The notes: generated from the sequence alone by a model not told the origin. DNA of 23,231 nucleotides from Breznakia sp. PF5-3 (GCF_029504745.1 NZ_JAQFIQ010000036.1:1-23231), one strand, 5' to 3'; positions 559 to 22,276 are shown, counted from the stretch's first letter. Program-made: numbers and translations.

Positions 559-3324
559 ATGAAGAAAAAACCAAGTAAATGGCTAGCGAAACTAACATTT
601 ATTCTGTTAGTCACGTTTGTTGTCATTGGACAACTTACCATGAACAAACTTGGAGCGGAAGATAATTCTTCAGATACAAAGACGGAAGATGTTATGAAGG
701 ATGTTGATGAAAAGATATCGTTTAGATCGATACAGCCATTAATGTTTGAAGATGTTCCTATGTATTTGGAGGTGAATGGTGTGGTACAAGAAATCACAAT
801 ATCTCCAGGTTTAGTATCGGACGCAGTAGAAAAATTGACACTAGAGGATGGTGTAAAATTTCAAAGAGCAGTACTTAGAAGGGAAGAAGGTGGAAACACC
901 ACGGAAGTAGATATTATTCGAGTGGGGAAGCTCGATGATGAAATCTATTATTCTCTAGCAAATCAACAGAATACAGGAATTTTATTAAAGGAGAATGAGA
1001 AATTAGTAATTGTGTGTAAGTCAGTATATGGCTTTACATACGAATATGATCCACTAAAGGGGAGTGTGAGTGGACCAGCGACAACATGGAAAGATGATGC
1101 AGTTGATATCCATGTAAAGGCTGAAAAATATCATCATATTAGTAAGATTGAATACATTGATAAAAACAATGTAGTTACTCAGGTATCAATAAGTGATAAT
1201 AAGGATATGACTTTTTCAATACCTGCTAGCGCTTTAAATGGTGATATGAGAGTAAAAGCAGAGTTTCTATCAGATGCACTTTATACAATTACAGAAGCAC
1301 CATCCGATGGAATCCAGCAAGGTGATTTATGTTTAAATGCAACCACAAGTGGTGAGTTCATTCCAAGTGTTACACCAGGGAGTACACAATCGTTTATGTT
1401 GTTTTCACAATCATGGACAGGTGGGGATGAATGGTATTTGAATATGTTAGCAATTAATGGCGAAAGTGTAGAAGTGCCATTGGTTTATGATATTGGGTCA
1501 ACTACCACAACAACACTTAAAAACGGTTCAATTGTAACCATAGAGTTAACAGGTAAAGGTGCGAGCTTGGCTTGGAAGGCTGGCGATAGCAGTAAAAAGC
1601 GGTGCCTTTATGTAATCACGGTTAGTGATATTCAAGAAGATATGGTTTTAACTGGAAACTTTAAGCTTGGTGGAAAGCGTGAAATGATTATTCGTGACAT
1701 GATTGGTATTTCGAAAGTGGGAGCTGCCAAACAAACAGTAGTAAGAAATGCATGGGTAAGTGGAACAGGTTATGATAATCCTGGGGATCACTTCTTCTAC
1801 AACTTACAACCGAATGATGGGGATACTGTTTATGATGCATACTACAAGGAAAGAGATAATGTAGGAGATCCAGCACAAAGTTATAATATTTATTTATATA
1901 CAGTGAAGCCAGGATACAATCCAAATACGGCAACTTATAGAGTTTATTATAATGGTGTGGAAGGAGATTATTCAAAGATTTTTCTAGCTTCTGGTAATGC
2001 TCAAGAGGTGGCAGCCAGTCTGGTAACAAATTATCGGCATTTTGATCCTTTTAAGAAGTTGGGAATCGCTGGTGGAGGAAAAATCAATGGTGATGGTTTC
2101 TTTGTCGAAGCAGCAAGAGAAGGATATACACATGTGTTTGCACTAAAAGAACATCCTGCAAATAATCAAGTTATTGATTTGAAAGCTACACCATATCAAT
2201 ATAATTTAATTTTTGATATGGATGGTGGTACCTATGCTAATACGGATTTAAATTTAGAAAAATACACATTGAATGGAACAACTGCAACGGAAAAGAAAAG
2301 TGATGGTTCACTTGTAACGTATACATTAGAACATGATACGGCAACTGCACATATGCCTGTTGTTGCACCTAAGAAAGAAGATTATTTCTTTAAGGGATGG
2401 AAGCTTTATAAAGATGGTGTAGCAGTATCAGATACGTTATATTCATTAGGTCAATCATTTGAAATTAATGAAGATACAATAGCTTATGCAAAAGGTGATT
2501 TAAAGTATGATGAAGGTCATACATTTACCTTCGTAGCACAATGGAGCAATGTATTAGATAGTACAGATACGGCAGAGTATGATGCATATTTTTATAAAGA
2601 AGATCCATTAAATGGAACTCATGTTCATGATGGTAAAAAGTATACTATCGTCAAAGAGATTAATGATTTTGGAACGGTTGGCGGAACAATCGTGGTATTA
2701 AATGATTTTCATCCAGGAAGTGATTATGAATTGAATAATGATTCAAAAGTTAAAATCGTAGGATTAAAGGATGAAACGGAAAGTGGTTATAAAGCACATA
2801 ATCAAATTATTTATTATTATGATTTAATACCAAATAAACTTACCATTGAAAAAACGGTAAGCGGATCTTATGCAAATAGATCAACAGCGTTTGAAATAGA
2901 AATTCAATTGATAAATCCAGATAAGACGAATTTTAATGGAACAATTGATTATACAGGGAAAACAACACATGCAAACAATCAAGCTTTAGCAAATGGAACA
3001 TTAACATTTATTGATGGAAAGGCATCAATTACTTTAAAGCATGGACAAAGCATTACTTTTGAAACTACTCCTGGAGTGGAATACAAAGTAATAGCAAAAC
3101 CCTCTACAAGGGGATATGAATTTGCATATACAGGAACAGGAACGTGTACAAATGAACACGCGACAGGAACGTTGAGTGATGATCATGAAGTGTTGATTAC
3201 GGGAACAAGAGATTATATCCCAGATATGGGAATTCAAGGTTCACCTTTGGTAGTAATATTCATGGGTGTTGTTGGACTTAGTGGCATCTTAGTTAAGATG
3301 ATATATCGTAAAAGAAAATGTTAG
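559..3324 (+). CDS. Large sortase-substrate surface adhesin, probable pilus tip subunit (Cpa-position gene)
   Basis: 921-codon ORF with an N-terminal signal peptide (MKKKPSKWLAKLTFILLVTFVVIG). Internal Listeria-Bacteroides-type repeat at nt 2194-2547 (YNLIFDMDGG...FFKGWKLY...FVAQW). C-terminal pilin/Cna-B-like domain (TLKHGQSITFETTPGVEYKV). C-terminal sorting signal IPDMG (3217-3231), then a hydrophobic stretch and an RKRKC tail. First gene of the pilus operon. Confidence 0.8.
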   Translation: MKKKPSKWLAKLTFILLVTFVVIGQLTMNKLGAEDNSSDTKTEDVMKDVDEKISFRSIQPLMFEDVPMYLEVNGVVQEITISPGLVSDAVEKLTLEDGVKFQRAVLRREEGGNTTEVDIIRVGKLDDEIYYSLANQQNTGILLKENEKLVIVCKSVYGFTYEYDPLKGSVSGPATTWKDDAVDIHVKAEKYHHISKIEYIDKNNVVTQVSISDNKDMTFSIPASALNGDMRVKAEFLSDALYTITEAPSDGIQQGDLCLNATTSGEFIPSVTPGSTQSFMLFSQSWTGGDEWYLNMLAINGESVEVPLVYDIGSTTTTTLKNGSIVTIELTGKGASLAWKAGDSSKKRCLYVITVSDIQEDMVLTGNFKLGGKREMIIRDMIGISKVGAAKQTVVRNAWVSGTGYDNPGDHFFYNLQPNDGDTVYDAYYKERDNVGDPAQSYNIYLYTVKPGYNPNTATYRVYYNGVEGDYSKIFLASGNAQEVAASLVTNYRHFDPFKKLGIAGGGKINGDGFFVEAAREGYTHVFALKEHPANNQVIDLKATPYQYNLIFDMDGGTYANTDLNLEKYTLNGTTATEKKSDGSLVTYTLEHDTATAHMPVVAPKKEDYFFKGWKLYKDGVAVSDTLYSLGQSFEINEDTIAYAKGDLKYDEGHTFTFVAQWSNVLDSTDTAEYDAYFYKEDPLNGTHVHDGKKYTIVKEINDFGTVGGTIVVLNDFHPGSDYELNNDSKVKIVGLKDETESGYKAHNQIIYYYDLIPNKLTIEKTVSGSYANRSTAFEIEIQLINPDKTNFNGTIDYTGKTTHANNQALANGTLTFIDGKASITLKHGQSITFETTPGVEYKVIAKPSTRGYEFAYTGTGTCTNEHATGTLSDDHEVLITGTRDYIPDMGIQGSPLVVIFMGVVGLSGILVKMIYRKRKC

Positions 3325-3860
3325 CAATTAAAGAAAAAATAGAAAAACAGCGAGATCCAAATAAACAACCTACAGTATTACAAGATATTCTATATTTGTT
3401 TATTAAGATTATTGCAATTATTGGTATTTTTATCTTATTATTTACGCTTATATTTGGGATTCATCGCAATGCAAATGCAGATATGGATCCTGCAATCAAA
3501 GATGGTGATCTGATACTCTATTATCGATTTGATAAAAATTATACAGCTAAGGATTTGGTTATGTATGAGTATGATGACACGACTTATGTATCAAGAGTTG
3601 TTGCTGTAGCAGGAGATCAAGTGGATATCAATGAAGAAGGACTTATCATAAATGGTTCACTTCAACAAGAATACGATATTTATACAGATACTTTACGATA
3701 TGCAACTGATGTTGAATTTCCTTTGGAAGTAAAAACAGGAGAAATCTTTGTATTAGGTGATAATCGAGAGCAAGCAAGCGATAGTAGAATTTTTGGCTCA
3801 ATCAAGATAAAAAATACCTTTGGAAAAGTATTTATGATTATACGAAGAAGAAATTTATAA
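3318..3860 (+). CDS. Signal peptidase I (S26) homologue lacking the Ser/Lys catalytic dyad; SipA/LepA-like pilus assembly factor
   Basis: N-terminal TM helix plus S26 boxes (DPAIKDGDLILY, VLGDNREQASDSRIFG). The nucleophile position is Asp (ANADMDPA versus GDSMxPT, codon 3480-3482). The general-base position is Ser (YVSRVVAVAGD versus YVKRVIGLPGD, codon 3591-3593). The ATG at 3318 overlaps the adhesin stop at 3322-3324. Confidence 0.8.
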   Translation: MLAIKEKIEKQRDPNKQPTVLQDILYLFIKIIAIIGIFILLFTLIFGIHRNANADMDPAIKDGDLILYYRFDKNYTAKDLVMYEYDDTTYVSRVVAVAGDQVDINEEGLIINGSLQQEYDIYTDTLRYATDVEFPLEVKTGEIFVLGDNREQASDSRIFGSIKIKNTFGKVFMIIRRRNL

Positions 3861-3879
3861 AAATATAATGGAGGACAAT

Positions 3880-5019
3880 ATGACAAAATTAAGAAAAGTA
3901 TTATCAATAATGATGGTAAGTATTATGACATTTACACTTATTGCAGTTTCAACAGTGAACACAGCTGCAGCAAGTGATAGCAAGGAAGTAACAATTACAA
4001 AGACTTTATCAATTGCTGATGGTATTACAACACCAAGTGCAAGTTTTACCTTTGCATTTGCAGCAGATACAGCATTTGATGCTGCTACACCTGCGATTGC
4101 AAACAAAAGTGTGAATTTCACAAGTGCAGATGTAAAAGCAGCAAATACAAATGCAATTGAAAAAGAGACAACGAATATTTTCGCTGGAGTAACATATCCA
4201 CATGCAGGAGAGTTCTTTTATACAATTAGTGAAACAGCTGGTACAACAGCAATTGAAAATGGAGAAATGGCATACGATACAAGCAAATATAGAATGCAAG
4301 TAATCGTTGCTGAAGACACAGATGGAACACTTTATATTAGCGCGGTAAATGTTGCTACATTAGATGATCAAAATAACGTTGATCAAAAAGTTGGTTCACA
4401 ACCAAGTGATGATATTACTGGTGGAGAAACATTTAAATTATTTACAAATACCTTTACAAAAAATGGTGGTGCTGGTGTTGATCCTGGTGAAGAATTAGAT
4501 TCAGCATTGACAATCACACATAAAGTAGCTGGAACAGCAGCAGATAAGTCAAAATATTTCACATATAATGTAACATTAACACAATCACCAACGGCAAGAG
4601 CTGCATTATCATATACAGGGAAAGTTGGTAGTACACCTTATACATTTACAACAGGTCAAGCAACAACAGTTACTTTAAAACATGGTGAAACAATTGATTT
4701 TGAGGTACTTCCAGCAGGTACAAAGGTTAGTGTAGTAGCAACTGGTGTGGATACATATACACCATCTTATGAATATATATCAAATGGTGGAGCAAAAGTT
4801 ACACAAGCGGGTTCAAAAGCAACAACTTTAACGGCTTCTGACATATTAGTTGGTGAATATGAGAATACAATTGTATTTACACACACTCGTAATACAGAAG
4901 ATATTCCACCAATGGGTATTGATATTAATAACTTACCATTTATATTGTTTATTTTAGTATCTATGGGAGGATTTGCTTTCTATATTGTTAATAAGAGACG
5001 CACAAGAACACAAGGTTAG
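3880..5019 (+). CDS. Backbone (major) pilin, FctA/T-antigen-like, sortase substrate
   Basis: GGAGGA at 3870-3875 favours the ATG at 3880 over the track start at 3868. Signal peptide MTKLRKVLSIMMVSIMTFTLIAVSTVNTAAA. Pilin-like motifs (YPHAGEFFYTISE, YRMQVIV, TLKHGETIDFEVLPAGTKV). C-terminal IPPMG (4903-4917), then a hydrophobic segment and an NKRRTRTQG tail. Confidence 0.8.
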   Translation: MTKLRKVLSIMMVSIMTFTLIAVSTVNTAAASDSKEVTITKTLSIADGITTPSASFTFAFAADTAFDAATPAIANKSVNFTSADVKAANTNAIEKETTNIFAGVTYPHAGEFFYTISETAGTTAIENGEMAYDTSKYRMQVIVAEDTDGTLYISAVNVATLDDQNNVDQKVGSQPSDDITGGETFKLFTNTFTKNGGAGVDPGEELDSALTITHKVAGTAADKSKYFTYNVTLTQSPTARAALSYTGKVGSTPYTFTTGQATTVTLKHGETIDFEVLPAGTKVSVVATGVDTYTPSYEYISNGGAKVTQAGSKATTLTASDILVGEYENTIVFTHTRNTEDIPPMGIDINNLPFILFILVSMGGFAFYIVNKRRTRTQG

Positions 5020-5032
5020 TTAGAATAAAAAA

Positions 5033-6010
5033 ATGAAACAAAGAAAACAACTTTTCGTTGAAAAGAAGCAATCAAAGCGTTTCATAGAAAGAAAGATCAT
5101 TAAAGGGATACATGGAATTATAAATGCAAGTATATTTGTAGTGTTACTTTTATTGTTTATATATGGTTGTTATGCTTTATGGGATTCAAAGCAAGTAACG
5201 AATGAAGCACAGGCTATACAATATGAAGCATATAAGCCAAGCGAAGAAGATAATTTATCGTTTCAGGAATTACAGACGATAAATGATGAAGTATTTGGGT
5301 GGCTCACTGTTTATGGTACAAGGATTGATTATCCTTTTGTCCAAGCTGAAGACAATAAAAAGTATGTAAATACGGATAGCAAAGGAAAATATTCCATATC
5401 TGGTAGTATTTTCTTAGATTCAAGAAATAAACATGATTTCTCAGATTTTAATTCGATATTATTTGGGCATCATATGGTTGAATCAGCAATGTTTGGTGAT
5501 TTGAGTAATTTCACTGATTCTATGTATTTTAAAGATCGAAAATATGGAAATATTTATTATAGTGGAAAAAATCATGGTATTGAATTCTTTGCATTTTTAG
5601 AAACAGATAGTTATGATAGTGTGATTTTTCAACCAGCAATTATAAACGATGATCAAAGACAAGCAGCATTAGAGTATATTGAGGTGAACGCGCTTCACTA
5701 TCGTGATCTTCATGTTACAACAAAAGATCACATTGTGATATTGAGCACTTGTTCATCTGCATTAACCAATGGTAGATACATTTTGGTGGGACGGATTACC
5801 GACTCAACATATCCAGATTCTTTCAATCGTGCAAAAGATAATTTGTCTGAAAGTAATGTTGGAATATGGAATACATTTCTTCGTTTACCACTATGGGCAA
5901 AATTGGTTTTAGGAATATTACTTTTATGTATCGTATGGATGATCATTGAAAAAAGTAGAAAGGGTAATGGTGATGAAAACAGTTCAGGGAATAAAAAAGA
6001 TACAGTGTAA
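5033..6010 (+). CDS. Class B-type sortase (pilus-polymerising), with an additional C-terminal TM segment
   Basis: N-terminal TM helix. SrtB-like N-terminal block INDEVFGWLTVYGTRIDYPFVQAEDNKKYV. Catalytic His in ILFGHHM, Cys in VILSTCSS, Arg in GRYILVGRI. The gene sits between two pilin genes. Hydrophobic segment LPLWAKLVLGILLLCIVWMII lies near the C-terminus (about 5879-5948). Confidence 0.85.
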   Translation: MKQRKQLFVEKKQSKRFIERKIIKGIHGIINASIFVVLLLLFIYGCYALWDSKQVTNEAQAIQYEAYKPSEEDNLSFQELQTINDEVFGWLTVYGTRIDYPFVQAEDNKKYVNTDSKGKYSISGSIFLDSRNKHDFSDFNSILFGHHMVESAMFGDLSNFTDSMYFKDRKYGNIYYSGKNHGIEFFAFLETDSYDSVIFQPAIINDDQRQAALEYIEVNALHYRDLHVTTKDHIVILSTCSSALTNGRYILVGRITDSTYPDSFNRAKDNLSESNVGIWNTFLRLPLWAKLVLGILLLCIVWMIIEKSRKGNGDENSSGNKKDTV

Positions 6011-6614
6011 ATTTATTGTTTTAGTCATAGTGTTTTTGATATTACCTTTTGGTATCAAGGTGAATGCAGCAGAAAACGGTGTGGATGTAAATCTTCCTGT
6101 TGAGCAAATTTTTGAGGTTGAAAATGAAAATACAATTTCAAATGAGTTTAAGTATTGTCTGTTTGCAGTGACGGACAATGCTCCAATGCCAAAAAATAGT
6201 GGTCAAAAAAATTATATATTTTATTTGAAGGGAAACCAGAGGATAGATATAGAAGCGATTAATTATACACAAAGTGGAGTGTATGAATATGATCTTTATC
6301 AAGTCATAGAGGAAGAAAAAGGGGGCTATGTCTATGATAAAACAGTATATCGAATTATTGTTCATATTTCATACGATAGTCATAATGATTTCATTAGTGA
6401 GGTGACAATCGCTAATGAGAAGGGCTTAAAAGTGGATCGTGCAACATTTACTAATCAAGTGAGAATTAAAAATGCTGCAAGTGTTGCTAATACCATGTCG
6501 AAGCCAAGTACAGGAGATAATACGGATATATCTGCATGGTATGTCTTAATGTCGATTTCAAGTGTATTTATCTTTTTTGGAATATGGGAAAAAAGAAAAA
6601 AAGCGAAGATATGA
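5973..6614 (+). CDS. Small basal/minor pilin (FctB-position gene) with a KPSTG sorting signal
   Basis: The SD-like GAAAGGG at 5958-5964 fits the ATG at 5973; the track start at 5946 is a TTG inside the sortase gene. Signal peptide ends ...FGIKVNA/AENG. Streptococcal-pilin-like motifs (FKYCLFAVTDNAPMPKN, GVYEYDLYQV, YDKTVYRIIVHI). C-terminal KPSTGD (6501-6515), then a hydrophobic stretch and a KRKKAKI tail. Confidence 0.75.
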   Translation: MKTVQGIKKIQCKFIVLVIVFLILPFGIKVNAAENGVDVNLPVEQIFEVENENTISNEFKYCLFAVTDNAPMPKNSGQKNYIFYLKGNQRIDIEAINYTQSGVYEYDLYQVIEEEKGGYVYDKTVYRIIVHISYDSHNDFISEVTIANEKGLKVDRATFTNQVRIKNAASVANTMSKPSTGDNTDISAWYVLMSISSVFIFFGIWEKRKKAKI

Positions 6615-6738: not shown

Positions 6739-7051
6739 CAAAAACTAAGAAAAATAATGAAGTTTTTTGAAGGTTTCTTGTAATATGGGCTTTTTTATGC
6801 GATATTAATATTAAGAAATGTATATAAAAGCAGCATAATAAAAAAATATAATTAGTTAAATTGCATAATTGGCTTGGGAAGGCACACTATAATTATGCGG
6901 AGGGCAACTTTATCTTTTATATTTTTTTGTTATCTGCTGTTTCACTATTCTTGTTTTTTTAGGGTAGTGAGCGAGCTTTTTGATTTTAGTATCCCGTATG
7001 ACTAAGCCCTCTTATGAAACCATAATTTATAATTTATCAGGAGGGCGAAAT

Positions 7052-8365
7052 ATGAGTGGATTAAAAGCGGAAGAAATTCAAAAATTTATTGATGGTGATG
7101 ATACGGTATATCCTAAGATTTTTGCTGTGTATAAAAACAAAGTTAATTATATGGCCATCAAAATTCTTCGTAATGAAGCAGATTGTGAAGAAGTAGTGCA
7201 AAATACGTTTATTAAAGTATTCGAAAAAAGAAAAGATTTAAAAGATGCGAGTGCATTTAATACATGGATCTATCGAATTGCATACAATGCTAGTTTAGAT
7301 TTATACAGAAAGAATAAACGTAATTTAAGTAGTGATAATCATGATGTAGAAGAATTATCAGATTCTACAAGAGATACAAATTATGAAGTTAAAAAACATA
7401 CGATTTTGGAGTCTGTTCGTTTACAAATCGAAAGTTTACCAAAAGAGCTAAAAGAAATCTGTGATCTATGGTTTCTTTCTGGATGTAGCTTGGAAGAAAT
7501 TTCAGGTATTTTAAATGTGCCAAAAGGTACGGTTAAAAGCCGTTTACATCGTGCACGAAAACAACTACGTTCTGATTTGCAGAGGCAAGAGATAACCCCC
7601 AGGACGTTTTTAACGTTGTCGTTTCCAACCTTTGCATACCGGATATATGTTTCTATGATTGAAACACATAAGATTACAGCAGCATCAGGTGCTAGAATCA
7701 TGCGAAAGATTGAGGAAGCTACCAACGTCTCTGTAGATGCACTGGCATCTGCAATTGGAAATAATTCACTTGGAAGAGCAAGTATTGGAACTTTTGTATT
7801 ACTTTCATCTTTGCTACTTGGAGGTTTGGGAGCAGCAGGCGTGATGAATCCTACAGATACATCGGCAAAAAATATTACAGAAGTGATGTATCTAGATGAG
7901 ATAACGAATAAGAATTTACAAATTGGGATAATCTTTGATGGGACGATTAAGGCAAAGGATGTCAAAGTAACTCTTAATGGCAAGAAGATAAAGCTTGATG
8001 TTGTTGACAAAGATCGGTGTACTTTTATAGCTAGTGAAAATGGGCAGTATGTAATTAAATATAAGAATTCCAATGAAGAAATTGAAATAAAGAATATTGA
8101 TAAATCAGCACCTGTTTTATTAGGGATATCGGCAGATGATGGATTAATTAGTTTAAGTGCAGAAGATAATCATTCAGGGATTGACTTTGAAAAATCTTAT
8201 GTAGAAGCAGGCGATAAAAAAATATCATTAGTAAAGATTGATGAGAAGAATTTCTATTTAAGTGATGCATTAGAAAAAGATGCGACAGTGAGGTTTTATG
8301 ATATTGCAGGGAATTATGAAACTTACAAAATAAATGTTGAAAAAAAGATTAGTAGTACAGAATAG
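7052..8365 (+). CDS. ECF (group 4) sigma-70 factor fused to a TM helix and an extracytoplasmic Ig-like domain (single-chain sigma/anti-sigma-like sensor)
   Basis: GGAGGG at 7040-7045 sits 6 nt before the ATG at 7052; the track start at 6980 is a TTG with no SD. Region 2: EEVVQNTFIKVFEK...FNTWIYRIAYNASLDLYRKNKR. Region 4.2: LPKELKEICDLWFLSGCSLEEISGILNVPKGTVKSRLHRARKQLR. TM helix IGTFVLLSSLLLGGLGAAGVM (7784-7846). The C-terminal ~170 aa is beta-rich and ends with a RFYDIAGNYETYKINV motif typical of bacterial Ig-like domains. Confidence 0.85.
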   Translation: MSGLKAEEIQKFIDGDDTVYPKIFAVYKNKVNYMAIKILRNEADCEEVVQNTFIKVFEKRKDLKDASAFNTWIYRIAYNASLDLYRKNKRNLSSDNHDVEELSDSTRDTNYEVKKHTILESVRLQIESLPKELKEICDLWFLSGCSLEEISGILNVPKGTVKSRLHRARKQLRSDLQRQEITPRTFLTLSFPTFAYRIYVSMIETHKITAASGARIMRKIEEATNVSVDALASAIGNNSLGRASIGTFVLLSSLLLGGLGAAGVMNPTDTSAKNITEVMYLDEITNKNLQIGIIFDGTIKAKDVKVTLNGKKIKLDVVDKDRCTFIASENGQYVIKYKNSNEEIEIKNIDKSAPVLLGISADDGLISLSAEDNHSGIDFEKSYVEAGDKKISLVKIDEKNFYLSDALEKDATVRFYDIAGNYETYKINVEKKISSTE

Positions 8366-8595: not shown

Positions 8596-8620
8596 CCTAA
8601 AATAGAGAGGAGAATTGGAT

Positions 8621-11600
8621 ATGAAAAAAGTTATATCTAGCTTACGTAAATTTGGTTTAGGTTCTTTAGCTTTTTGCATGGCACTTGGAATGGCATTAAC
8701 GAATATTAATGCAATTGATAGTAGTTCTGAGATAAGTGTAAAAAATGAAATTACTTATAACGATGATAAAGCGCAAGCGACAATTCATTTAGATGTGGCA
8801 CAAGAAAACGAAAATGTTGAAGTGAGTAAAGTGTTAGATCCAAATGAAAATGAAATGAGTCTTGATGACTTAAACTATGTAGTCGATAACAACGCTACTT
8901 ATACATTTAAAGTAGAGTATCGTATGGAGGATAGTCAAGACCTTCAGACATATGACTATGAAGTTATTGTAAATGACATTATAGACGCAACAAGCAAGGG
9001 CGAGATATCAAGAGGGGCGCTAAGAAGTGATATTAGCACAAGAGCTAATATTCTTGGAGACAATGAGTATATTGTGTATACTCTTGATGAATTAAAAACA
9101 TATGCTGAAATACCAAATGCAACAGTTTATTTTGGAGCGGATATTATTTGGGCATCTGGTACATCTTCAGATAAGAGTATTTCTATTGCAGAAGGTGTAA
9201 CGATTAATGGAACTGATCCTAGAACAGGTATTCGTCATAAATATAGATACGATACAGGTAGTTCAAAATGGGAAGGTTTCCAACTTCGTCAAGATGATAG
9301 AAAAGTAACATTCAGTGATATTGATATTGAGGGAACTGGAGGATATGGTGTAGCAAATGGACATGATTATCGAAGAGTAGTAGTAACATTCCATAATGTG
9401 AATTTCAAAGGTTCAAATGCTCAAGGATTCTATGCTCCAAAAGGTGGAAAACTGATTATGTCAGGAGATACTACTTGGACACAAAAAGGAACAAATCCAT
9501 ATTCAGAAGAGTTTGCAGAAATTACAAACTTAGAATTTGCAGAAGGTGCAAATGTGACAATTGATCATGAATCAAGATTAGGAAAGAGTTACAATTCATT
9601 CTTCTATGCTTCTTACAATGATGATAAATATAAACATATTGACATTACAGTAGGAAAGAACGCAAAGGCAACAATCAAATCAAACAAAGGAATTTTTGCT
9701 GCAAATGCAAATGGTGGAACACACTCAATTACAGTAAATGAAGGTGCAAATTTTACGATTGATCAAACAAACAATACAGACAATGAATGTCAGTTAGCAA
9801 AACCTGGTAACAATTCACCAATTTACATTAGAGTAAAAGATGAAGGTACATTCAATTTCTATTCCAACACAAAAGCAGGGTATGGAATGTTGAATACACA
9901 ACAAGAAAGTGCAATCAATGTTGATGCAGGTGGATCAATCCGTGTTATTAACTATGGTAAAGGTGGAGCTGTCGGTGCAAACAGTACAGCAACATATATC
10001 AACCTTGATACACCTAAATATGCAGAATTTACAAGTCAATCAACATTTCCATTAGAAATGATGACAAGGGGTGGCGGAAATGTAACAGCAAGCAATGCTG
10101 TTGTATTAGCTAGTGCAGATAACAAAGCATACTATAACCTAGGTTATGTACATAACATTGCAATGAACCATAAAAGTAGTAGTAACACTTTAGTTGGTGT
10201 TAATCCTACAACTTGGACTGGTGCATATACATATACAGCAATGCAAAATGGACTTAAGAGTTTAGTGTTTAGAGGGGTTTCGATTGAAATTCAAGAACCT
10301 GTAAAAGATACTGATTCAATTGTGAATGTGAAAACAGAACCAAATGCGAAAGTAACAATTACAGGGACATATGAAGATGGAACACCTTGTGAATTAACAA
10401 AAGTAGCAGATGAAAACGGGGATGTTCAATTTGATTTAGGAGATAAAACACTAAAAGGTGGATCTGAATTATCTTCTAAAGCAACTGTAAATAACGATAT
10501 TGAACTTATTGGAAATACAGTAATTGTAGAAAAAACTCCAATTGAAGAAAAAGTAACGCTTACTGCAGAAGATGCATTCCTTCACCGTGATGATGCGAAA
10601 GCATTAGCTAATGTTGATGGATTAGCATACTACAACAAAGCAAAAGCAGTATTATGGAATAACACAGAAGATACACCTAGTGCATCATGTGCAGACTACG
10701 ACAAGATTAAAGCAGGTGTAATCGGTGTTTACGATGTGACATATTCTTATACGTTACATGAAGAAACAATTACAACAACAGCTAAAATTATTGTTCACAA
10801 TGGAGTACCAACACCAGATGGTGAATATGTATTGACAGCTTCAGATGGATTGATTTCTGAGAGTGAAGCGAAAGCTTTATCTGGAAAAGAGTATAGTTCA
10901 CTTCGTTCATACAACAAAGCTACAGCTTTCAATAAGAAAGGTGAGCAATTTGAGGTAAGTACATTTGTACAACCAGGAGACTGGATGAGTATTACAGATG
11001 GAAAAGTTGGATCTTATAGAGTTTTCTACTCATTTGGTGAAGGCGATAACTTAGTTCAAAAAATAGTTAAGATAACAGTATATGAAGATGGTGGTATCTT
11101 ATCACCAGATGAAGATTTTGTTCTTCATGCATTTGATGCTTGTATCTTAAAAAGTGAAGCAGAAGGATTAAATGTAAAAGAAGATTTAATTCCATATAAC
11201 CGAGGAAAAGTAACATTGGCAAGTGGAGATATTTTAGCGCCTAATGTGAAAGCAGATGATTTCGCAACGATTAAAAGTGGAACACTTGGAAACTATGATG
11301 TGACTTATAGTTATGGAAGTGAAAATAATGCAGTTAGCAAAGACGTAATCGTTAGTGTTAAGAAGAATGGTGGAATTGTTTCACCAGAAAGAGATTTTGT
11401 TCTTTATGCGGAAGATGGAGAAATCTTACAAACCGAAGCAGAAGGTATGGAATCAGAAACAGACGTATTAGATATAGTGAATGGATATGTTGAATTTGTA
11501 GATGGAACTACAGTAGCACCAGATATTTCAGTGGAAGACTTCGATAAAGTACAAGCTGGAAAAGATGGTGATTATAAAGTTACTGTTAGCTACGATGGTG

Positions 11601-11881
11601 TTGAAAAAGAAGTAGAATTGACACTAATTCAAGAATATGAAGCAAGGTATTTATTTGATTATAATAATGATGGAAAAGTAAATAGTGTAGATTATGTATA
11701 TTTCAATGATTTATTTAATAATCCAGATACTGTAACAGAACAAGATTTATTACTTTCTGATGCAAATGGAGATGGATATATAGATATGGTTGATTTAGGT
11801 ATGGTTCACTATTATTTAAACAATCCACAAGCAAAATTAAAAGAAATTAGAATACCAATTGATTTACTTAAAAAGAAATAA
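8621..11881 (+). CDS. Secreted dockerin-bearing adhesin-like protein: N-terminal Ig-like region, beta-helix-like central region, 4 Ig-like repeats, C-terminal type-I dockerin
   Basis: GAGAGGAG at 8604-8611 favours the ATG at 8621; the track start at 8615 is a TTG only 3 nt after the SD. Signal peptide ...GMALTNINA. Recurrent beta-helix-like rungs: EGANVTIDHES, GKNAKATIKSNKG, NEGANFTIDQTNN, DEGTFNFYSN, DAGGSIRVINYG. Repeats and dockerin are listed as separate features. Confidence 0.85.
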   Translation: MKKVISSLRKFGLGSLAFCMALGMALTNINAIDSSSEISVKNEITYNDDKAQATIHLDVAQENENVEVSKVLDPNENEMSLDDLNYVVDNNATYTFKVEYRMEDSQDLQTYDYEVIVNDIIDATSKGEISRGALRSDISTRANILGDNEYIVYTLDELKTYAEIPNATVYFGADIIWASGTSSDKSISIAEGVTINGTDPRTGIRHKYRYDTGSSKWEGFQLRQDDRKVTFSDIDIEGTGGYGVANGHDYRRVVVTFHNVNFKGSNAQGFYAPKGGKLIMSGDTTWTQKGTNPYSEEFAEITNLEFAEGANVTIDHESRLGKSYNSFFYASYNDDKYKHIDITVGKNAKATIKSNKGIFAANANGGTHSITVNEGANFTIDQTNNTDNECQLAKPGNNSPIYIRVKDEGTFNFYSNTKAGYGMLNTQQESAINVDAGGSIRVINYGKGGAVGANSTATYINLDTPKYAEFTSQSTFPLEMMTRGGGNVTASNAVVLASADNKAYYNLGYVHNIAMNHKSSSNTLVGVNPTTWTGAYTYTAMQNGLKSLVFRGVSIEIQEPVKDTDSIVNVKTEPNAKVTITGTYEDGTPCELTKVADENGDVQFDLGDKTLKGGSELSSKATVNNDIELIGNTVIVEKTPIEEKVTLTAEDAFLHRDDAKALANVDGLAYYNKAKAVLWNNTEDTPSASCADYDKIKAGVIGVYDVTYSYTLHEETITTTAKIIVHNGVPTPDGEYVLTASDGLISESEAKALSGKEYSSLRSYNKATAFNKKGEQFEVSTFVQPGDWMSITDGKVGSYRVFYSFGEGDNLVQKIVKITVYEDGGILSPDEDFVLHAFDACILKSEAEGLNVKEDLIPYNRGKVTLASGDILAPNVKADDFATIKSGTLGNYDVTYSYGSENNAVSKDVIVSVKKNGGIVSPERDFVLYAEDGEILQTEAEGMESETDVLDIVNGYVEFVDGTTVAPDISVEDFDKVQAGKDGDYKVTVSYDGVEKEVELTLIQEYEARYLFDYNNDGKVNSVDYVYFNDLFNNPDTVTEQDLLLSDANGDGYIDMVDLGMVHYYLNNPQAKLKEIRIPIDLLKKK
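10553..11644 (+). repeat. Four tandem ~91-aa Ig-like protein repeats (coding, diverged at DNA level)
   Basis: Each unit runs [LV]xAxDxxIxxxxAKAL...YN.A.V...G......V...D[FW]..I..G..G.Y.VTYSYG.....K.V.[IV].V. The signatures are GVIGVYDVTYSY, GKVGSYRVFYSF, GTLGNYDVTYSY and GKDGDYKVTVSY. Confidence 0.8.
11651..11824 (+). other. Type-I dockerin module (two Ca-binding loop/helix segments)
   Basis: LFDYNNDGKVNSVDYVYFNDLF ... LLSDANGDGYIDMVDLGMVHYYLNN. Both halves fit the DxNxDGxhxxxD dockerin/EF-hand-like loop followed by a helix. Confidence 0.8.
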
Positions 11882-11924
11882 TGAAGAAAGGAGATTGTTT
11901 ATTTTATAAATAAACAAACACGAT

Positions 11925-13451
11925 ATGAAATTAAAATTTATTAAAAAAGGATTTAAGAAAATCGCTGCTCTAGGGTTAGTGATGGCTGTGTTGATTCCTA
12001 TTGTTGGGAATGTTACTTCTTCAATAACAGCAGCTCAAACACCTTCATTTGACGTAGAGCCTACGATTACAATTACAAGAAATGATGGTGGTGGACTATA
12101 TTATGGAACACACGAACAAGAAGAAAGTTATGTAGATAATGGAAAACAATATTACCGTGATGGAGATATTATTCAAGTAGAAGTATCTTTACCGCAAGGA
12201 CATGGGTCATCAGCAGTATTTAATGTTGTGAAATATGATAATGAAAAATTACAATTATTATCAACAATGGATCATATTAAATATTCAATGGCTTCAAATT
12301 ATATGAATGCAGGATGGGATCCAGCAGTTGGATACTATGAAGGAGAGACAAACCAAATCTCAACAATATCAACAGGACCTGCAAATGAATTTGAAGGTGG
12401 AAATATTGCTGTAATGTATTTTAAAGTTAAACCTGGAGTTGAAAGTACAAAAGGAACAGATATTACATTCGAATTTCCAAACTTTAATAGTGCAACAAGA
12501 ATTGAAGGGGAAAGAATGCCTGTTAATAACCATAAAGGTTTTATAGCAGGAGATGAATCAACATATGAATATCACCCTGAATCAATTACAATTCAAGCGA
12601 AAACACCTTCTGCTCCTGAACCAGCAGTAAAACCTACATTGGAATTAACTGCTAATACAGTAACAGTTTATGAAGGAGATATTGTAAACCCTAAAGATTA
12701 CATAAAAAAAGCAAGCTGTACAAGTGATGCAAATGTTAATAAAGATAGTGTTGTAATTACTGGTGGAACTGATGAAACAGGAAAACATCAACCTGTAGCA
12801 GGAAACTATGAATTTACATATAAAGTAACAAATGCATCAAATGAAACAACAGAAAAAACATTGAAATTAAATGTTTTAGAAAGAACATACACTGTAAAAT
12901 CAGTAGAAACAGCTGGTCAAGGATTGAATATTCCTGCTGGAACAACAGATGCTGAATTCGAAGAAATTCTTGAAGGTCTTTTAGGTAAAGAATTTGTTGT
13001 TAATGTAGAAGGAAATGATGGATCTAAGTTTAAAGTTAAAGGAACTGTTTTCGGTGGAGAAACTGATGAATACGAAATTGATGGAAATGATGTTTTAACA
13101 ACACAAACATTTAATATGAAATTAGATTTATTATTGCCAGCAGTAGTATATAACGAAAATGGTGAAAGAGAAATCGTTTCATTACTTGGAAGAGCTGGTT
13201 TTGCTAGTTTAATCGATGATGGAACAGCAGAAGCAGTAATTAAAATTAGAGTTGGTGCAGGTTCAACAACACCAGGAAATGATTCTACAGGATCAAATAA
13301 TGGATCTACAGGTCATGCATCAATTGCTGCAGGTAATTCTGGAGCAGGAACAGATACAGGAGATACTACAAACACAGCAGGATTTATGACATTATTGGCA
13401 TTATCTGGACTTGTATTGGTAGGAACTAAATTAAGAAAAACATATCGCTAA
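11925..13451 (+). CDS. Cell-surface anchoring cohesin protein: signal peptide, cohesin-like module, Ig-like domain(s), Ser/Thr/Gly-rich linker, C-terminal sorting-signal-like tail
   Basis: Signal peptide ...NVTSSITAAQ. Cohesin-like module at 12039-12599. Ig-like domain ending AGNYEFTYKVTNASNETTEKTLKLNV. C-terminus GTDTGDTTNTAGFMTLLALSGLVLVGTKLRKTYR, i.e. xxDTGD, a hydrophobic stretch and a basic tail. No good SD before the ATG at 11925. Confidence 0.8.
   Translation: MKLKFIKKGFKKIAALGLVMAVLIPIVGNVTSSITAAQTPSFDVEPTITITRNDGGGLYYGTHEQEESYVDNGKQYYRDGDIIQVEVSLPQGHGSSAVFNVVKYDNEKLQLLSTMDHIKYSMASNYMNAGWDPAVGYYEGETNQISTISTGPANEFEGGNIAVMYFKVKPGVESTKGTDITFEFPNFNSATRIEGERMPVNNHKGFIAGDESTYEYHPESITIQAKTPSAPEPAVKPTLELTANTVTVYEGDIVNPKDYIKKASCTSDANVNKDSVVITGGTDETGKHQPVAGNYEFTYKVTNASNETTEKTLKLNVLERTYTVKSVETAGQGLNIPAGTTDAEFEEILEGLLGKEFVVNVEGNDGSKFKVKGTVFGGETDEYEIDGNDVLTTQTFNMKLDLLLPAVVYNENGEREIVSLLGRAGFASLIDDGTAEAVIKIRVGAGSTTPGNDSTGSNNGSTGHASIAAGNSGAGTDTGDTTNTAGFMTLLALSGLVLVGTKLRKTYR
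12039..12599 (+). other. Cohesin-like module A
   Basis: GDIIQVEVSLPQGHGSSAVFNVVKYDNEKLQLLS and GGNIAVMYFKVKPGVESTKGTDITFEFP match the cohesin pattern (GDxVxVxVxL ... F.h.YDp..Lehhs ... G.hA.h.FKV...G...I.F). Paralogous to modules B and C. Confidence 0.65.
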
Positions 13452-13486
13452 TTTATAGCAGAAAGAAAAGCATTTGAAAGTGGTGA

Positions 13487-13513
13487 GAAAAGGAAGTCTG
13501 GACACTCCTTTTC
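13487..13513 (+). other. Intercistronic stem-loop (GAAAAGGA / TCCTTTTC), possibly a partial terminator or mRNA-processing/stability element
   Basis: A perfect 8-bp stem (13487-13494 with 13506-13513) and an 11-nt loop, followed by CATTGCTTTTCG, which is only a weak U-tract. Located between the stop at 13451 and the ATG at 13539. Confidence 0.35.
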
Positions 13514-13538
13514 CATTGCTTTTCGAGAAAGGACATTT

Positions 13539-16500
13539 ATGAAAAAGATTATCATGAAAAGTCTTGTTCTTCTGCTAGCAATTACAACTATATTACCAAT
13601 GAGTGGTATTACGGTTGCAGCAGCGGAAGGAATAAAGACAGATATTACCATTACACGTAATAACGGAAATGGTGCTTATGGGGAACATACGCATCCATCA
13701 TACGTTGAAGATGGTGTTCAATATTATCGTGAAGGCGATATTATTGAATTGGATATTGCATTGCCTGCAAATCATGGGGCATCAGAACTTTGGAACGTAG
13801 TAAAGTATGATCCAACACAAGTAGCAGTTGTATCAACAAAGCTAAATGTTCAAAGTACGCTTGGTGATAATTATCGGGCAAAGGGTTATGAAGCTAATAC
13901 AAATTTAGCTTATCAAGGAACACAGGGATTAATATCAACTACGATTGTGCGTACATTCTATGGAAATGATGCACCTGATTTTGATACAGCTGGAGGAACA
14001 ACAGCTAAAATTTATTTTAGAGTTCTTAATGATGTGGAAACAGTAGAAGGAACAGAAATTACATTTGAATTTCCAATTTTCCAAGCAATCAGTAGAACTA
14101 GTATTACCGATTATGAATTTATACACGAAGGATTTGATGCGAATCGTTATGCGGAAACAAGAACTGTAAGTTTAGAATCACAAACGATTATTGCGAAAAA
14201 ACCAACGGTTGATTTTATTGCAGAGGATGGATTCATTACACGTAGTCAAGCACAAGCAATTGGTGAAAGTGCAGATTTAAAACCTTATAACTTTGTTAGT
14301 GCTACAGCAAGTGATGGACAAGAAGTGGCAGTAAAAGCAACAACAAGTAGTTTAGATACAATTAAGGCAGGAACATTGGGAACATATGATGTTACTTATT
14401 CATATACATTTGAAGGAACACCAATGTCAAAAACAGTAAAACTTACAGTTGTTGAAAACGACGTAGTTATTTCTGAAGATAGAACGGTAGCTTTAAGAGC
14501 GGATAGTGTTATCTTGACACAAACACAAGCAAAAGCCTTATCTGCAAAAGAAGCATTGCTTCCATTAAATAATGTATTTGTATACTTATCAAATGGAACA
14601 ACAGCAACAGCAAATGTTGATGTACCAGAGTTTGATAAGATCAAAGCAGGTACAATTGGTACATATAATGCAACATATTCTTATGGAATAGATAAAAGTT
14701 TTGCATCAAAAACAGTAAATGTAGTTGTTGTAAAAGATGGATCTGACATAAGCGATAATAAAAAAGTTTCCTTATATGCAAAAGATGGTTTTATTAGAGA
14801 GTCACAAGCAAGAGCATTGTCACTACGTTCAGCCGTAGCACCATATAACAGTGCTGTAGTAACATTAGCGGATGGATCAACTACAACTCCAACAACAGAA
14901 ATTGAAGCAAATGCTTGGAATAAGATGAGAGCTGGAACATTAGGAACATACAATGTATATTATCACCATGGAACAGGTGATAGTGAAGTTGAAATGAATG
15001 TGAAAGCTACGGTTATTTCAGATGATGCAGTTGTTTCAAAAGATGAAACAGTTAGTTTAGTAGCGGATGATGTTGATATGTATCAAGAAGATGCAAAAGC
15101 GCTTGGTAAAGTGGATGATTTAATTGATTACGCAAATGCTGAAGTAACACTATCAGATGGTACAAAAGTAGCACCTAGTGTAGAAACAGATGATTTTGAT
15201 AGTATCAAAGCTGGAATCATTGGTGAATATGAAGTTACATTTAAATATGGTGAAGGTGATAGTGCTGTTGAAAAGACAGTAACAATTACAATAAAAGAAG
15301 ATTTAAGACATTTAATCTCAGCTACAGATAACTTTATTACTCAAAGTAAAGCACAAGAATTAACTTCAAAAGAAAGTTTACGTGCAGTGAATTCAGTTAG
15401 TGTAACAGACTATAATGGTGTTGACCAAGATGCAGTTGTAACAACAAGTGACTTTAATACAATTAAAGCAGGAACTTTGGGAAGCTACATAATTACTTAT
15501 AGTTATGGTACAGGAACAAAAGAAGTTTCAGTTACTGCAAAAGTAAATGTTATTCCTGATGATTCTATTGTTGATGGTGATGTAAGTTTATATGCAAGAG
15601 ATAAAGCGATTACAGTAACACAAGCAAAAGCATTGAATACGAAAGAAGACCTAATTCCATATAATGAAGCATCTGTAAGATTGCTTGATGGAACTACACC
15701 AGCACCAAGTGTTGCAGTTTCTGTAGGCGATTGGTCATTGATAAACAGTGGTAAAGAAGGTTCTTATAATGTTACTTATAGTTATGGAACGGTTTCAAAG
15801 ACAGTAAAGATTACAGTTGTAAAAGATGGCTCTGAAGAGTCTGAAGACAAAACAGCAACATTATATGCGAAAAATGCTTTTATAACCGTATCAGATGCAA
15901 AAAAAGTTAGCAATAAGACGCAATTGATTCCATACAACAAAGCAGAAGTAGTATTGGCGAGTGGTGATAAAAAAGTGCCAGATGTGACGATATCAAATGA
16001 TGATTTATTAGCAATTAGTGCAGGAACAATTGGTGGCTATAACGTACTTTATTCATACGGTAGTGGAAAACAACAAGTACAAAAAATGGTAAAAATAGTT
16101 GTAATTGCAGATGATCCGATAATTTCAGAAGATGAAAGTGTTGCGTTGAGTGCAAATGATGAAGAAATTGATGATGCAGCTGCTAAGAAATTAACAAGTA
16201 GAAACGAATTGATTGATATTAGTAATGCAGTGGTTACTTTCGATGATGGAACAACACAAGCACCTACATTAGCGGTTGCTGATGAAGATTGGGATGCAAT
16301 ACGTTCAGGGAAATTAGGTACATATTCATTAACATATTCTTATGGTACATTAGGAAATAAAGATTATGTTACAAAAACAGTAAGTTTGACAGTAGTGAAA
16401 CTTACAGAAGACCGTACTTTATTTGATTACAACAGAGATAATATAATTAATAGTGTGGATTACATGTATTTCCATGAGTTATTCAATAATCCTCAATTTG

Positions 16501-16634
16501 TGACACCAACAGATGTATTGTTGTCTGATGCAAATGGTGATGGATATATTGATATGGTTGACTTAGGAATGATTCATTATTATGTGAACAATCCAAAAGT
16601 AAAACCTCCAACTATTAAAGTACCAATAGGTTAA
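13539..16634 (+). CDS. Scaffoldin/adaptor-like protein: N-terminal cohesin-like module, 8 Ig-like repeats, C-terminal type-I dockerin
   Basis: SD GAGAAAGGA lies before the ATG. Signal peptide ...GITVAAAEG. Module, repeat and dockerin evidence is listed under separate features. Confidence 0.85.
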   Translation: MKKIIMKSLVLLLAITTILPMSGITVAAAEGIKTDITITRNNGNGAYGEHTHPSYVEDGVQYYREGDIIELDIALPANHGASELWNVVKYDPTQVAVVSTKLNVQSTLGDNYRAKGYEANTNLAYQGTQGLISTTIVRTFYGNDAPDFDTAGGTTAKIYFRVLNDVETVEGTEITFEFPIFQAISRTSITDYEFIHEGFDANRYAETRTVSLESQTIIAKKPTVDFIAEDGFITRSQAQAIGESADLKPYNFVSATASDGQEVAVKATTSSLDTIKAGTLGTYDVTYSYTFEGTPMSKTVKLTVVENDVVISEDRTVALRADSVILTQTQAKALSAKEALLPLNNVFVYLSNGTTATANVDVPEFDKIKAGTIGTYNATYSYGIDKSFASKTVNVVVVKDGSDISDNKKVSLYAKDGFIRESQARALSLRSAVAPYNSAVVTLADGSTTTPTTEIEANAWNKMRAGTLGTYNVYYHHGTGDSEVEMNVKATVISDDAVVSKDETVSLVADDVDMYQEDAKALGKVDDLIDYANAEVTLSDGTKVAPSVETDDFDSIKAGIIGEYEVTFKYGEGDSAVEKTVTITIKEDLRHLISATDNFITQSKAQELTSKESLRAVNSVSVTDYNGVDQDAVVTTSDFNTIKAGTLGSYIITYSYGTGTKEVSVTAKVNVIPDDSIVDGDVSLYARDKAITVTQAKALNTKEDLIPYNEASVRLLDGTTPAPSVAVSVGDWSLINSGKEGSYNVTYSYGTVSKTVKITVVKDGSEESEDKTATLYAKNAFITVSDAKKVSNKTQLIPYNKAEVVLASGDKKVPDVTISNDDLLAISAGTIGGYNVLYSYGSGKQQVQKMVKIVVIADDPIISEDESVALSANDEEIDDAAAKKLTSRNELIDISNAVVTFDDGTTQAPTLAVADEDWDAIRSGKLGTYSLTYSYGTLGNKDYVTKTVSLTVVKLTEDRTLFDYNRDNIINSVDYMYFHELFNNPQFVTPTDVLLSDANGDGYIDMVDLGMIHYYVNNPKVKPPTIKVPIG
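13626..14207 (+). other. Cohesin-like module B
   Basis: GDIIELDIALPANHGASELWNVVKYDPTQVAVVS and GGTTAKIYFRVLNDVETVEGTEITFEFP. Collinear with modules A and C, including the shared YV[DE][DN]G.QYYR[DE]GDII. Confidence 0.65.
14208..16400 (+). repeat. Eight tandem ~91-aa Ig-like protein repeats, same family as 10553-11644
   Basis: Signatures GTLGTYDVTYSY, GTIGTYNATYSY, GTLGTYNVYYHH, GIIGEYEVTFKY, GTLGSYIITYSY, GKEGSYNVTYSY, GTIGGYNVLYSY and GKLGTYSLTYSY. Each is preceded by [VL]xLxAxDxxI..xxAKAL and followed by K.V.[IV].V[VI].D. Confidence 0.85.
16419..16592 (+). other. Type-I dockerin module
   Basis: LFDYNRDNIINSVDYMYFHELF ... LLSDANGDGYIDMVDLGMIHYYVNN. The second segment matches the dockerin at 11651-11824 at 24 of 26 residues (my own count). 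Confidence 0.8.
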
Positions 16635-16661
16635 AACATTTTTAAAGAAAGGGCGATTCAT

Positions 16662-22265: not shown

Positions 22266-22276
22266 AAGGAGATATT

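Follow-up and report, generated by a model that had tools for sequence, protein, structure and literature searches.

Two of the three pilus proteins encoded by an operon of Breznakia sp. PF5-3 (Erysipelotrichaceae) end in sorting signals that, as judged by alignment, have methionine at P1, the residue preceding the scissile bond. The window analyzed here is a 23,231-nucleotide contig of this strain, identified by 100% protein matches, and its operon codes in order for a tip adhesin, a SipA-like protein, a backbone pilin, a class B sortase, and a base pilin. No feature of sortase signals is as constant, whatever the class, as Thr at P1, and in current mechanistic models the Thr hydroxyl takes part in catalysis. 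In the sequence collections that we searched, Met at P1 is a recurrent, polyphyletic minority variant of PitB/FctA-type pilins, present in roughly 4–6% of them and mostly in insect-gut Firmicutes. We think it reasonably probable that this reflects tolerance at P1 across the PitB/FctA-type family, in a PI-2/FCT-type pilus operon, and not a dedicated clade of Met–Gly sortases. The pilus system itself is of an already known kind, and the signal with P1 Met is undescribed as far as searches of the open-access literature show; the initial annotation knew of no characterized sortase that cleaves a Met–Gly bond, and we found no paper reporting a natural one, which is weak evidence given that scope.

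The adhesin codons GAT TAT ATC CCA GAT ATG GGA ATT read in frame as D-Y-I-P-D-M-G-I. This protein ends TRDY-IPDMG-IQGSPLVVIFMGVVGLSGILVKMIYRKRKC, where the residues beyond the pentapeptide are QGSPLVVIFMGVVGLSGILV and KMIYRKRKC, then a stop. In the backbone pilin GAA GAT ATT CCA CCA ATG GGT ATT reads E-D-I-P-P-M-G-I, the C-terminus is NTED-IPPMG-IDINNLPFILFILVSMGGFAFYIVNKRRTRTQG, and DINNLPFILFILVSMGGFAFYIV, NKRRTRTQG, and a stop come after the pentapeptide. The base pilin ends MS-KPSTG-DNTDISAWYVLMSISSVFIFFGIWEKRKKAKI, in which Asp, a hydrophobic segment, and EKRKKAKI follow the motif. The three-part layout of pentapeptide, hydrophobic segment, and basic tail, which the initial annotation had described for these proteins, is present at the extreme C-terminus of all three; Thr at P1 is absent from the adhesin and the backbone pilin, both of which have Met at the aligned position. 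Both ATG codons are found in four independent assemblies, namely that of the window (GCA_029504715.1), that of Breznakia sp. OttesenSCG-928-G09 (GCA_030266565.1), and two independent Logan read-set assemblies; this rules out sequencing or assembly error as the origin of the Met codons, which are real. The change from Thr to Met requires only one base change, an ACG-to-ATG transition.

The position of Met within the signals follows from the homologues. Thr (ISPTGI, ITPTGI, VTPTGL) stands at the aligned position of the 119 listed pilin homologues, immediately before the same G-I-x-I-N-N-L-P-F, and because the homologue tail [IV]-[ST]-P-T-G-[IL]-x-[IV]-[ND]-N-L-P-F aligns gap-free to I-P-P-M-G-I-D-I-N-N-L-P-F, we take the pilin Met to be the P1 residue, the counterpart of the acyl-donor Thr. 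In homologues of the adhesin (32–43% identity, from Lachnospiraceae metagenomes) a transmembrane segment and a basic tail come after VTPDSG, VVPDTG, or PSDTG, and by this comparison the adhesin IPDMG is an [IV]PD[ST]G signal with Met at P1. Both alignments agree with the initial annotation, which had placed Met at the position of the scissile-bond Thr. Whereas LPXTG has its Pro at P3, the Pro conserved in PitB/FctA-type pilin signals is that of P2 (xxPTG; EVPTG and VTPTG are examples); of 76 backbone signals taken from genome loci, 47 have Pro at P2 and 34 have Thr at P3. Among 202 unique signals P7' is Leu in 91%, P8' is Pro in 97%, and P9' is Phe or Tyr in 97%, values that are partly imposed by the regular expression used to collect them.

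Processing could conceivably occur elsewhere than at Met–Gly, through a shifted scissile bond or through another enzyme acting on these tails. The cleavage sites of Met-type signals are predictions from sequence, and the looseness of the non-primed side beside a strongly conserved primed side would accommodate such a shift. We nevertheless give it little credence: P1' Gly is invariant in PitB/FctA-type signals, Met falls on the exact Thr column without indels, a C-terminal Thr is linked to Lys in the homologous S. pyogenes system (PMC7900414), and by open reading frame and domain annotation of the window the operon encodes no other candidate processing enzyme.

The primed side of the backbone signal (window 4915–4944; loci L001–L141), G-[ILV]-x-[ILVM]-[ND]-[ND]-L-P-[FY], is conserved as strongly as the pentapeptide or more so and is missing from the adhesin and base-pilin signals; this conservation suggests that the sortase or SipA reads residues outside the pentapeptide as well. 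At P1, adhesin signals vary more than backbone signals do. Ser is common there on tip adhesins of PitB/FctA-type loci (VTPDSG, TPESG, PVPSG), and Ala occurs as well (IVPAG, VVPAG) (P0242–P0248; L047, L052, L053, L030, L074).

Judged from its genes, the locus is a PI-2/FCT-type, SipA-dependent pilus operon, in keeping with the FCT-type gene set recognized initially. The gene order obtained by reading the open reading frames, all five of which are intact, is co-linear with that of PI-2/FCT-type operons and recurs in most of 80 related genome loci. The only part of the adhesin common to known pilus adhesins is its C-terminal stalk domain. The SipA-like protein finds S. pyogenes SipA (4n31, 3.5e-25) and LepA (4k8w) as its top PDB matches, and alignment with a true signal peptidase I (4nv4) places Asp at the nucleophile Ser (ADMDP; compare NDMSP in S. 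pyogenes SipA) and Ser at the general-base Lys (YVSRVV against YVKRII); SipA and LepA share the Asp and likewise lack that Lys. It has, as expected of a SipA/LepA factor, the signal peptidase I fold without the Ser/Lys dyad and a gene lying between those of the adhesin and the pilin. The backbone pilin combines the Spy0128-like N-domain and DUF7601/CnaB-like C-domain of FctA/PitB pilins; S. oralis PitB is a homologue at 35% identity, and the PDB matches are of PitB type (range 5e-47 to 3e-36), including 7w7i (PitB-like, 5e-47), PitB 4s3l (6e-37), and 7f7y. The sortase scores 192.9 bits against TIGR03064 (cut-off 153.75), with residues 21–250 covering model positions 2–234/235, and NCBIfam NF040525 is a weak match. 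SrtG1 (4y4q, 1.6e-65) and Spy0129 (3psq, 6.9e-45) are its closest structures, with haem-uptake SrtB behind at ~1e-24 to 1e-29, and its GHHM (H146/H147), LSTC (C240), and NGR (R248) motifs are invariant across 22 relatives (alignment A1). The operon is tightly packed: the adhesin and SipA genes overlap by 7 nucleotides (3318–3324), and the 3' end of the sortase gene shares 38–65 nucleotides with the base-pilin reading frame, depending on whether the latter starts at TTG 5946 or at the annotated 5973. There is no second sortase gene in the window, and a gene for an extracytoplasmic function (ECF) sigma factor follows the base pilin instead.

Met at P1 is not seen in the closest relatives, that is, among pilin homologues (at most 46% identity), adhesin homologues (at most 43%), and other Breznakia species, where Thr or Ser is present; the Breznakia blatticola and B. 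pachnodae loci carry TSITG and VSITG. Across 80 genome loci retrieved with the window sortase, the backbone P1 is Thr in 67, Ala in three, Ile in two, and Ser, Gly, Glu, and Met in one each, the single Met being the IAPMG of locus L016. An unbiased sample was provided by the 150 best 50%-identity cluster representatives for the window pilin, 136 of which matched the signal regular expression. These have Thr at P1 in 124, Met in nine (including the query), and Ala, Gly, and Glu in one each, so that Met is present in 8/149 besides the query. When all 202 unique signals are pooled, P1 is Thr in 90%, Met in 4%, and Ala in 2%, and Met is the commonest residue other than Thr. We also scanned metagenomes for DNA encoding M-G-hydrophobic-x-hydrophobic-[ND]-[ND]-L-P-[FY]. 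The 64 matches lie in 61 contigs; in 48 cases the match is the C-terminal signal of a long open reading frame (xxPMG, transmembrane segment, and basic tail), mostly of the form x-[TA]-P-M-G, and the majority adjoin genes for a class B sortase and a SipA-like protein. The median pairwise identity of Met pilins is 30%, rising to 35–43% within Met-rich clades. Because it recurs widely, the Met signal is less singular than first thought, yet better grounded. Breznakia sp. PF5-3, presumably a cultured strain, appears to be the only named organism carrying P1 Met in these searches; those Met representatives of the clusters that were checked are metagenomic proteins.

Termite-gut metagenomes (Ga0123353-57, Ga0131853, JGI20163J and others; L081–L141) are the source of most Met-type pilins; an insect-gut enrichment is apparent in the metagenome sources, with database composition not accounted for. 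One termite-gut clade (L096, L098, L081, L131, L137, L140, L104, L108) has sortase reading frames of ~560–650 residues, compared with ~320, and tandem backbone pilins, up to four in L131, that mix PMG and PTG signals.

The recurrence of Met bears on whether the locus might be decaying or non-polymerizing, with Met disabling cleavage so that the proteins stay membrane-anchored or the operon is becoming a pseudogene cluster. P1 Thr is 90% conserved in the family and thought to be mechanistically important, and when the 50-residue tails were scanned against NCBIfam (E ≤ 10) the only match was of the pilin tail to TIGR01167, at 14.4 bits against a cut-off of 15.9; the adhesin tail had no match. 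The isopeptide triads are in part consistent with decay too. In the backbone pilin the N-domain triad K45/E122/N194 is conserved and the C-domain triad is replaced by H218 (4519–4521), A291 (4738–4740), and H339 (4882–4884), where the family has Lys in 93%, Glu in 92%, and Asn in 98%, so that one of the two pilin domains has the Lys–Asn triad. The signal-proximal domain of the adhesin keeps its Lys, with Glu replaced by A846 (3094–3096) and Asn by G882 (3202–3204), and both window proteins are thus without a Lys/Glu/Asn triad in the last domain. (Other Met-type pilins retain the Asn of FTNT.) Yet the five reading frames are intact and the sortase catalytic residues invariant, and the OttesenSCG-928-G09 sequence, which differs from the window at 13 positions in 9148 nucleotides, shows ten synonymous and three non-synonymous differences in the adhesin and pilin genes, with five and none in the pilin alone. 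In addition, xxPMG is retained by some 55 other pilins, which are highly diverged and whose operons are intact and include sortase and SipA; a dead signal is hard to square with this. Because Met is kept in pilins that have diverged to ~30–40% identity, and because of the synonymous excess between the Breznakia strains, we regard decay as very unlikely.

The idea, implied in the initial annotation, that IPxMG is a conserved signature co-varying with this sortase clade is not supported. Met loci are dispersed over a neighbor-joining tree of 124 sortases, for which Fitch parsimony requires at least 17 changes between Met and non-Met, and a single Met clade of sortases is ruled out; the window sortase groups with Thr-type loci from Breznakia, Erysipelotrichaceae, and Enterococcus. 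A column-by-column comparison of 34 sortases from Met loci with 61 from Thr loci gave no alignment column that divides them, the largest frequency difference being 0.43, and the window sortase lacks the residues concerned. A near-isogenic contrast is offered by L016 (IAPMG, ATG) and L010/L022 (ITPTG, ACG), whose sortases are 82–83% and pilins 73% identical, with identical catalytic motifs. Loss of SipA was also considered as a correlate of Met and ruled out, since a SipA-like gene is present in 31/44 Met loci and 58/68 other loci, counts that are limited by contig ends.

The base pilins behave differently from the other two substrates. Those of ~50 related loci end in xPKTG[DE], chiefly xPKTGD, with Thr at P1 in 48 of 53 regular expression matches and Met in none, and the two-motif division of labor suggested for the window fits the family in this respect. 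By this comparison only the adhesin and backbone signals, those handled by the class B sortase, vary at P1. Adhesin tails are visible in 15 Met-backbone loci and have Thr at P1 in nine, Met in three, Ala in two, and Ser in one; in ~41 Thr-backbone loci the adhesin P1 is never Met. In many related loci the base pilin is immediately followed by another sortase gene, a distant one that is ~24–27% identical to the window sortase and has the motif STCSYEFDDARYVV.

These patterns are most simply accounted for if Thr is strongly preferred at P1, with Met the commonest alternative and Ala and Ser frequent on adhesins; class B pilus sortases of the PitB/FctA type thus probably tolerate Met at P1. By homology with characterized systems, the window sortase (Cys240, His147, Arg248) would cleave the Met–Gly bond, form a Met-thioacyl enzyme on Cys240, and hand the Met carboxyl on to a lysine in the following pilin. 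This would probably be Lys174, to which we assign the acceptor role by analogy with Spy0128 K161 and FctA K173 (PMC7900414). The fiber would end with the KPSTGD base pilin, which would be anchored in the wall by a housekeeping sortase whose gene lies elsewhere than in the window. Recognition would probably depend on P2 Pro, P1' Gly, and the primed-side G-hydrophobic-x-hydrophobic-N-N-L-P-F more than on the Thr side chain, and lineages would repeatedly have drifted, or been selected, to Met through the one-base change. A bolder proposal, which we offer tentatively and with more doubt than confidence, is that PitB/FctA-type class B sortases naturally form Met-thioacyl intermediates and Met–Lys inter-subunit isopeptides. 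The P1 Thr hydroxyl would then be dispensable, the substrate would be chosen by P2 Pro, P1' Gly, and the primed side, possibly together with SipA, and the Breznakia enzyme may even prefer Met, making a natural sortase and tag pair orthogonal to LPXTG.

Several considerations weigh against tolerance at P1. Cleavage of the Met–Gly bond by the window sortase is inferred from homology. The P1 Thr hydroxyl has been proposed as part of the oxyanion hole (PMC11987632), and an Arg–Thr contact has been modeled (PMC5118464); since Met cannot provide the hydroxyl, it might be a poor substrate. The triad losses in the last domain of both window proteins could signal relaxed constraint. The neighbor-joining tree is crude, and the metagenome loci were picked for Met, which biases the appearance of clades. 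Loci that mix Thr and Met signals are only suggestive as proof that one enzyme takes both, because many loci hold a second sortase gene. Finally, that both window substrates have Met is unlikely under pure tolerance and independent drift, and the restriction of Met adhesins to Met-backbone loci (3/15 compared with 0/~41; Fisher p ~0.016, or ~0.06 without the window, by hand calculation) hints at a lineage-specific preference.

These last two points are what might be expected if specificity had co-evolved, such that Met at P1 is now preferred or even required by the Breznakia sortase, and enzyme and IPxMG form a matched pair set apart from Thr-type systems. Both class-B-type substrates of the window have changed from Thr to Met while the base pilin is still Thr, some sortase clades are Met-rich over deep divergence, and the window sortase has two unique substitutions at conserved positions, A193S, where 99% of the family has Ala, and Y212A, where 84% has Tyr, as candidate changes. 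Neither substitution was found in the other Met loci, however, and no column is common to the Met-associated sortases; moreover, the window enzyme nests among Thr-type loci, L016 went to Met with a sortase 82% identical to its Thr-type neighbors, and the adhesin still has Thr, Ser, or Ala at P1 in 12 of the 15 Met-backbone loci. We therefore consider a matched pair unlikely, if still worth taking seriously, and prefer a general tolerance at P1.

One of the nearest known systems is the PI-2 pilus of S. pneumoniae and the mitis group (PitA, SipA, PitB, SrtG1, SrtG2), which resembles the window in its order of adhesin, SipA, backbone, and class B sortase, and in a backbone signal of x-x-P-[P1]-G followed by hydrophobic-x-hydrophobic-[ND]-N-L-P-F. 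The PitB signal is VTPTG and that of PitA VPETG (PMC3178606), and PI-2 thus has Thr where the window has Met at P1 of both adhesin and backbone. The window differs also in having a KPSTGD base pilin, in lacking a second sortase gene, in its adhesin, which is not a vWA-type PitA, and in the loss of the pilin C-domain triad. The S. pyogenes FCT-2/3/4 systems (Cpa, SipA/LepA, FctA/Spy0128, SrtC1/SrtC2 = Spy0129, FctB) have the same five-part architecture with an LPXTG-type-anchored base pilin, depend on SipA together with a sortase of class B, and use P2-Pro signals (EVPTG, VVPTG, QVPTG, VPPTG). The characterized FCT signals all have Thr at P1, unlike those of the window, whose pilin has low identity to Spy0128 (E ~1e-8). 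One S. pyogenes sortase joins both adhesin and backbone to a pilin lysine, and a Thr311–Lys161 link has been shown (PMC7900414); in PI-2 and FCT systems generally, the class B sortase and SipA link the adhesin and polymerize the backbone through Thr–Lys bonds, and anchoring of the base pilin falls to a housekeeping sortase (PMC7900414, PMC3178606, PMC10548224). Class B signals elsewhere include NPQTN and NPKTG in S. aureus and B. anthracis, (S/P)PXTG in C. difficile, and LPKTxAVK for oral streptococcal SrtB and AbpA (PMC11987632, PMC5118464, PMC4974636). Those enzymes read non-LPXTG signals and residues beyond the pentapeptide, but their substrates keep Thr at P1 where the window has Met. Laboratory-evolved sortase A variants specific for LPXSG or LMVGG accept residues other than Thr beside the scissile bond; these are engineered class A enzymes, whereas the window sortase is a natural class B enzyme.

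If tolerance is real, the natural maintenance of P1 Met in ~55 diverged pilins and in Breznakia would mean that at least one sortase subgroup has no need of Thr. Rules for predicting surface proteins would then have to be widened, as Met pilins do not reach the cut-off of the LPXTG-anchor model and go by the label of hypothetical or DUF protein, and the enzymes and their signals would be candidates for orthogonal sortase-mediated ligation. Material for direct tests is available in the Breznakia operon and in the contrast between L016 and L010/L022. Should Met merely be tolerated at low efficiency, the result would be a modest footnote on class B sortase promiscuity.

Table 1. Features of the pilus operon and of related loci. 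Positions are those of the window unless a locus is named.
Feature	Position	Strand	Basis or remark
Tip adhesin, 921 residues: signal peptide, large N-terminal region, C-terminal DUF7601/CnaB-like stalk domain, sorting signal	559–3324	+	Pfam DUF7601 1.9e-17
IPDMG pentapeptide of adhesin, Met890 at P1	3217–3231	+	Read from DNA; homologues have TPDSG/VPDTG in the alignment
Hydrophobic segment and basic tail (KMIYRKRKC) of adhesin signal	3232–3321	+	
SipA/LepA-like signal-peptidase homologue without catalytic Ser (ADMDP) and Lys (YVSRVV)	3318–3860	+	Peptidase_S26 9.3e-23
FctA/PitB-type backbone pilin, 383 residues from 3868; public annotation start 3880, 379 residues	3868–5019	+	Pfam FctA 1.4e-10, DUF7601 7.1e-16
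Lys174 of pilin, candidate acceptor lysine for inter-subunit linkage	4387–4389	+	Lys in 90% of 102 aligned family pilins; outside triad K45/E122/N194
IPPMG pentapeptide of backbone pilin, Met at P1, Pro at P2 and P3	4903–4917	+	Read from DNA; aligns with ISPTG, ITPTG, VTPTG
I-D-I-N-N-L-P-F primed-side segment, transmembrane segment, and basic tail of pilin signal	4918–5016	+	
Class B pilus sortase, 325 residues; N-terminal and C-terminal transmembrane segments; His147 (5471–5473), Cys240 (5750–5752), Arg248 (5774–5776)	5033–6010	+	TIGR03064
Base (minor) pilin; public annotation start 5973	5946–6614	+	FctA domain 4.7e-07, strep_pil_rpt; place after sortase and xPxTGD signal as in related loci
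KPSTG of base pilin, then Asp; housekeeping-sortase type	6501–6515	+	DNA reading
Met-signal peptides of window, candidate substrates for window sortase: TEDIPPMGIDINN, RDYIPDMGIQGS			
Second sortase gene, locus L109	5975–6949	-	
Second sortase gene, locus L095	8353–9120		
Second sortase gene, locus L129	4015–4875	-	
Second sortase gene, locus L141	4951–5775	-	
Second sortase gene, locus L118	4292–5134	-	

Directly 3' of the operon and 5' of a dockerin cluster, 6980–8365 encodes an ECF-type sigma factor (regions 2 and 4) fused to a transmembrane segment and an extracytoplasmic C-terminal region of ~200 residues, which may be a local regulator because it lies between the pilus operon and that cluster. 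Four secreted proteins are encoded downstream of the operon at 8615–17882, two of them with C-terminal type I dockerin domains (8615–11881 and 13539–16634). Several carry repeated modules of ~90 residues (Big_3-like), and three (those starting at 11925, 13539, and 16662) have a common N-terminal module of ~200 residues with no match in Pfam or PDB, the PDB search having been made with the module of 11925–13451. This region looks like a cellulosome-like surface assembly, with no cohesin recognized in the window. The 508-residue protein of 11925–13451 ends in AGTDTGDTTNTAGFMTLLALSGLVLVGTKLRKTYR, a sorting-signal-like tail with a degenerate xxDTGD motif (TDTGD-type). The base pilins of B. blatticola and B. 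pachnodae compare with it in having QPDTGD and TPTTGD, and together these tails suggest that the Breznakia housekeeping sortase may read a loose x-x-x-T-G-D. The 3' end of the window (19004–22963) encodes a glycyl-radical enzyme (PFL-like and Gly_radical domains), a radical-SAM activase overlapping its 3' end, and a protein of the transaldolase/fructose-6-phosphate aldolase family, which are unrelated to the pilus.

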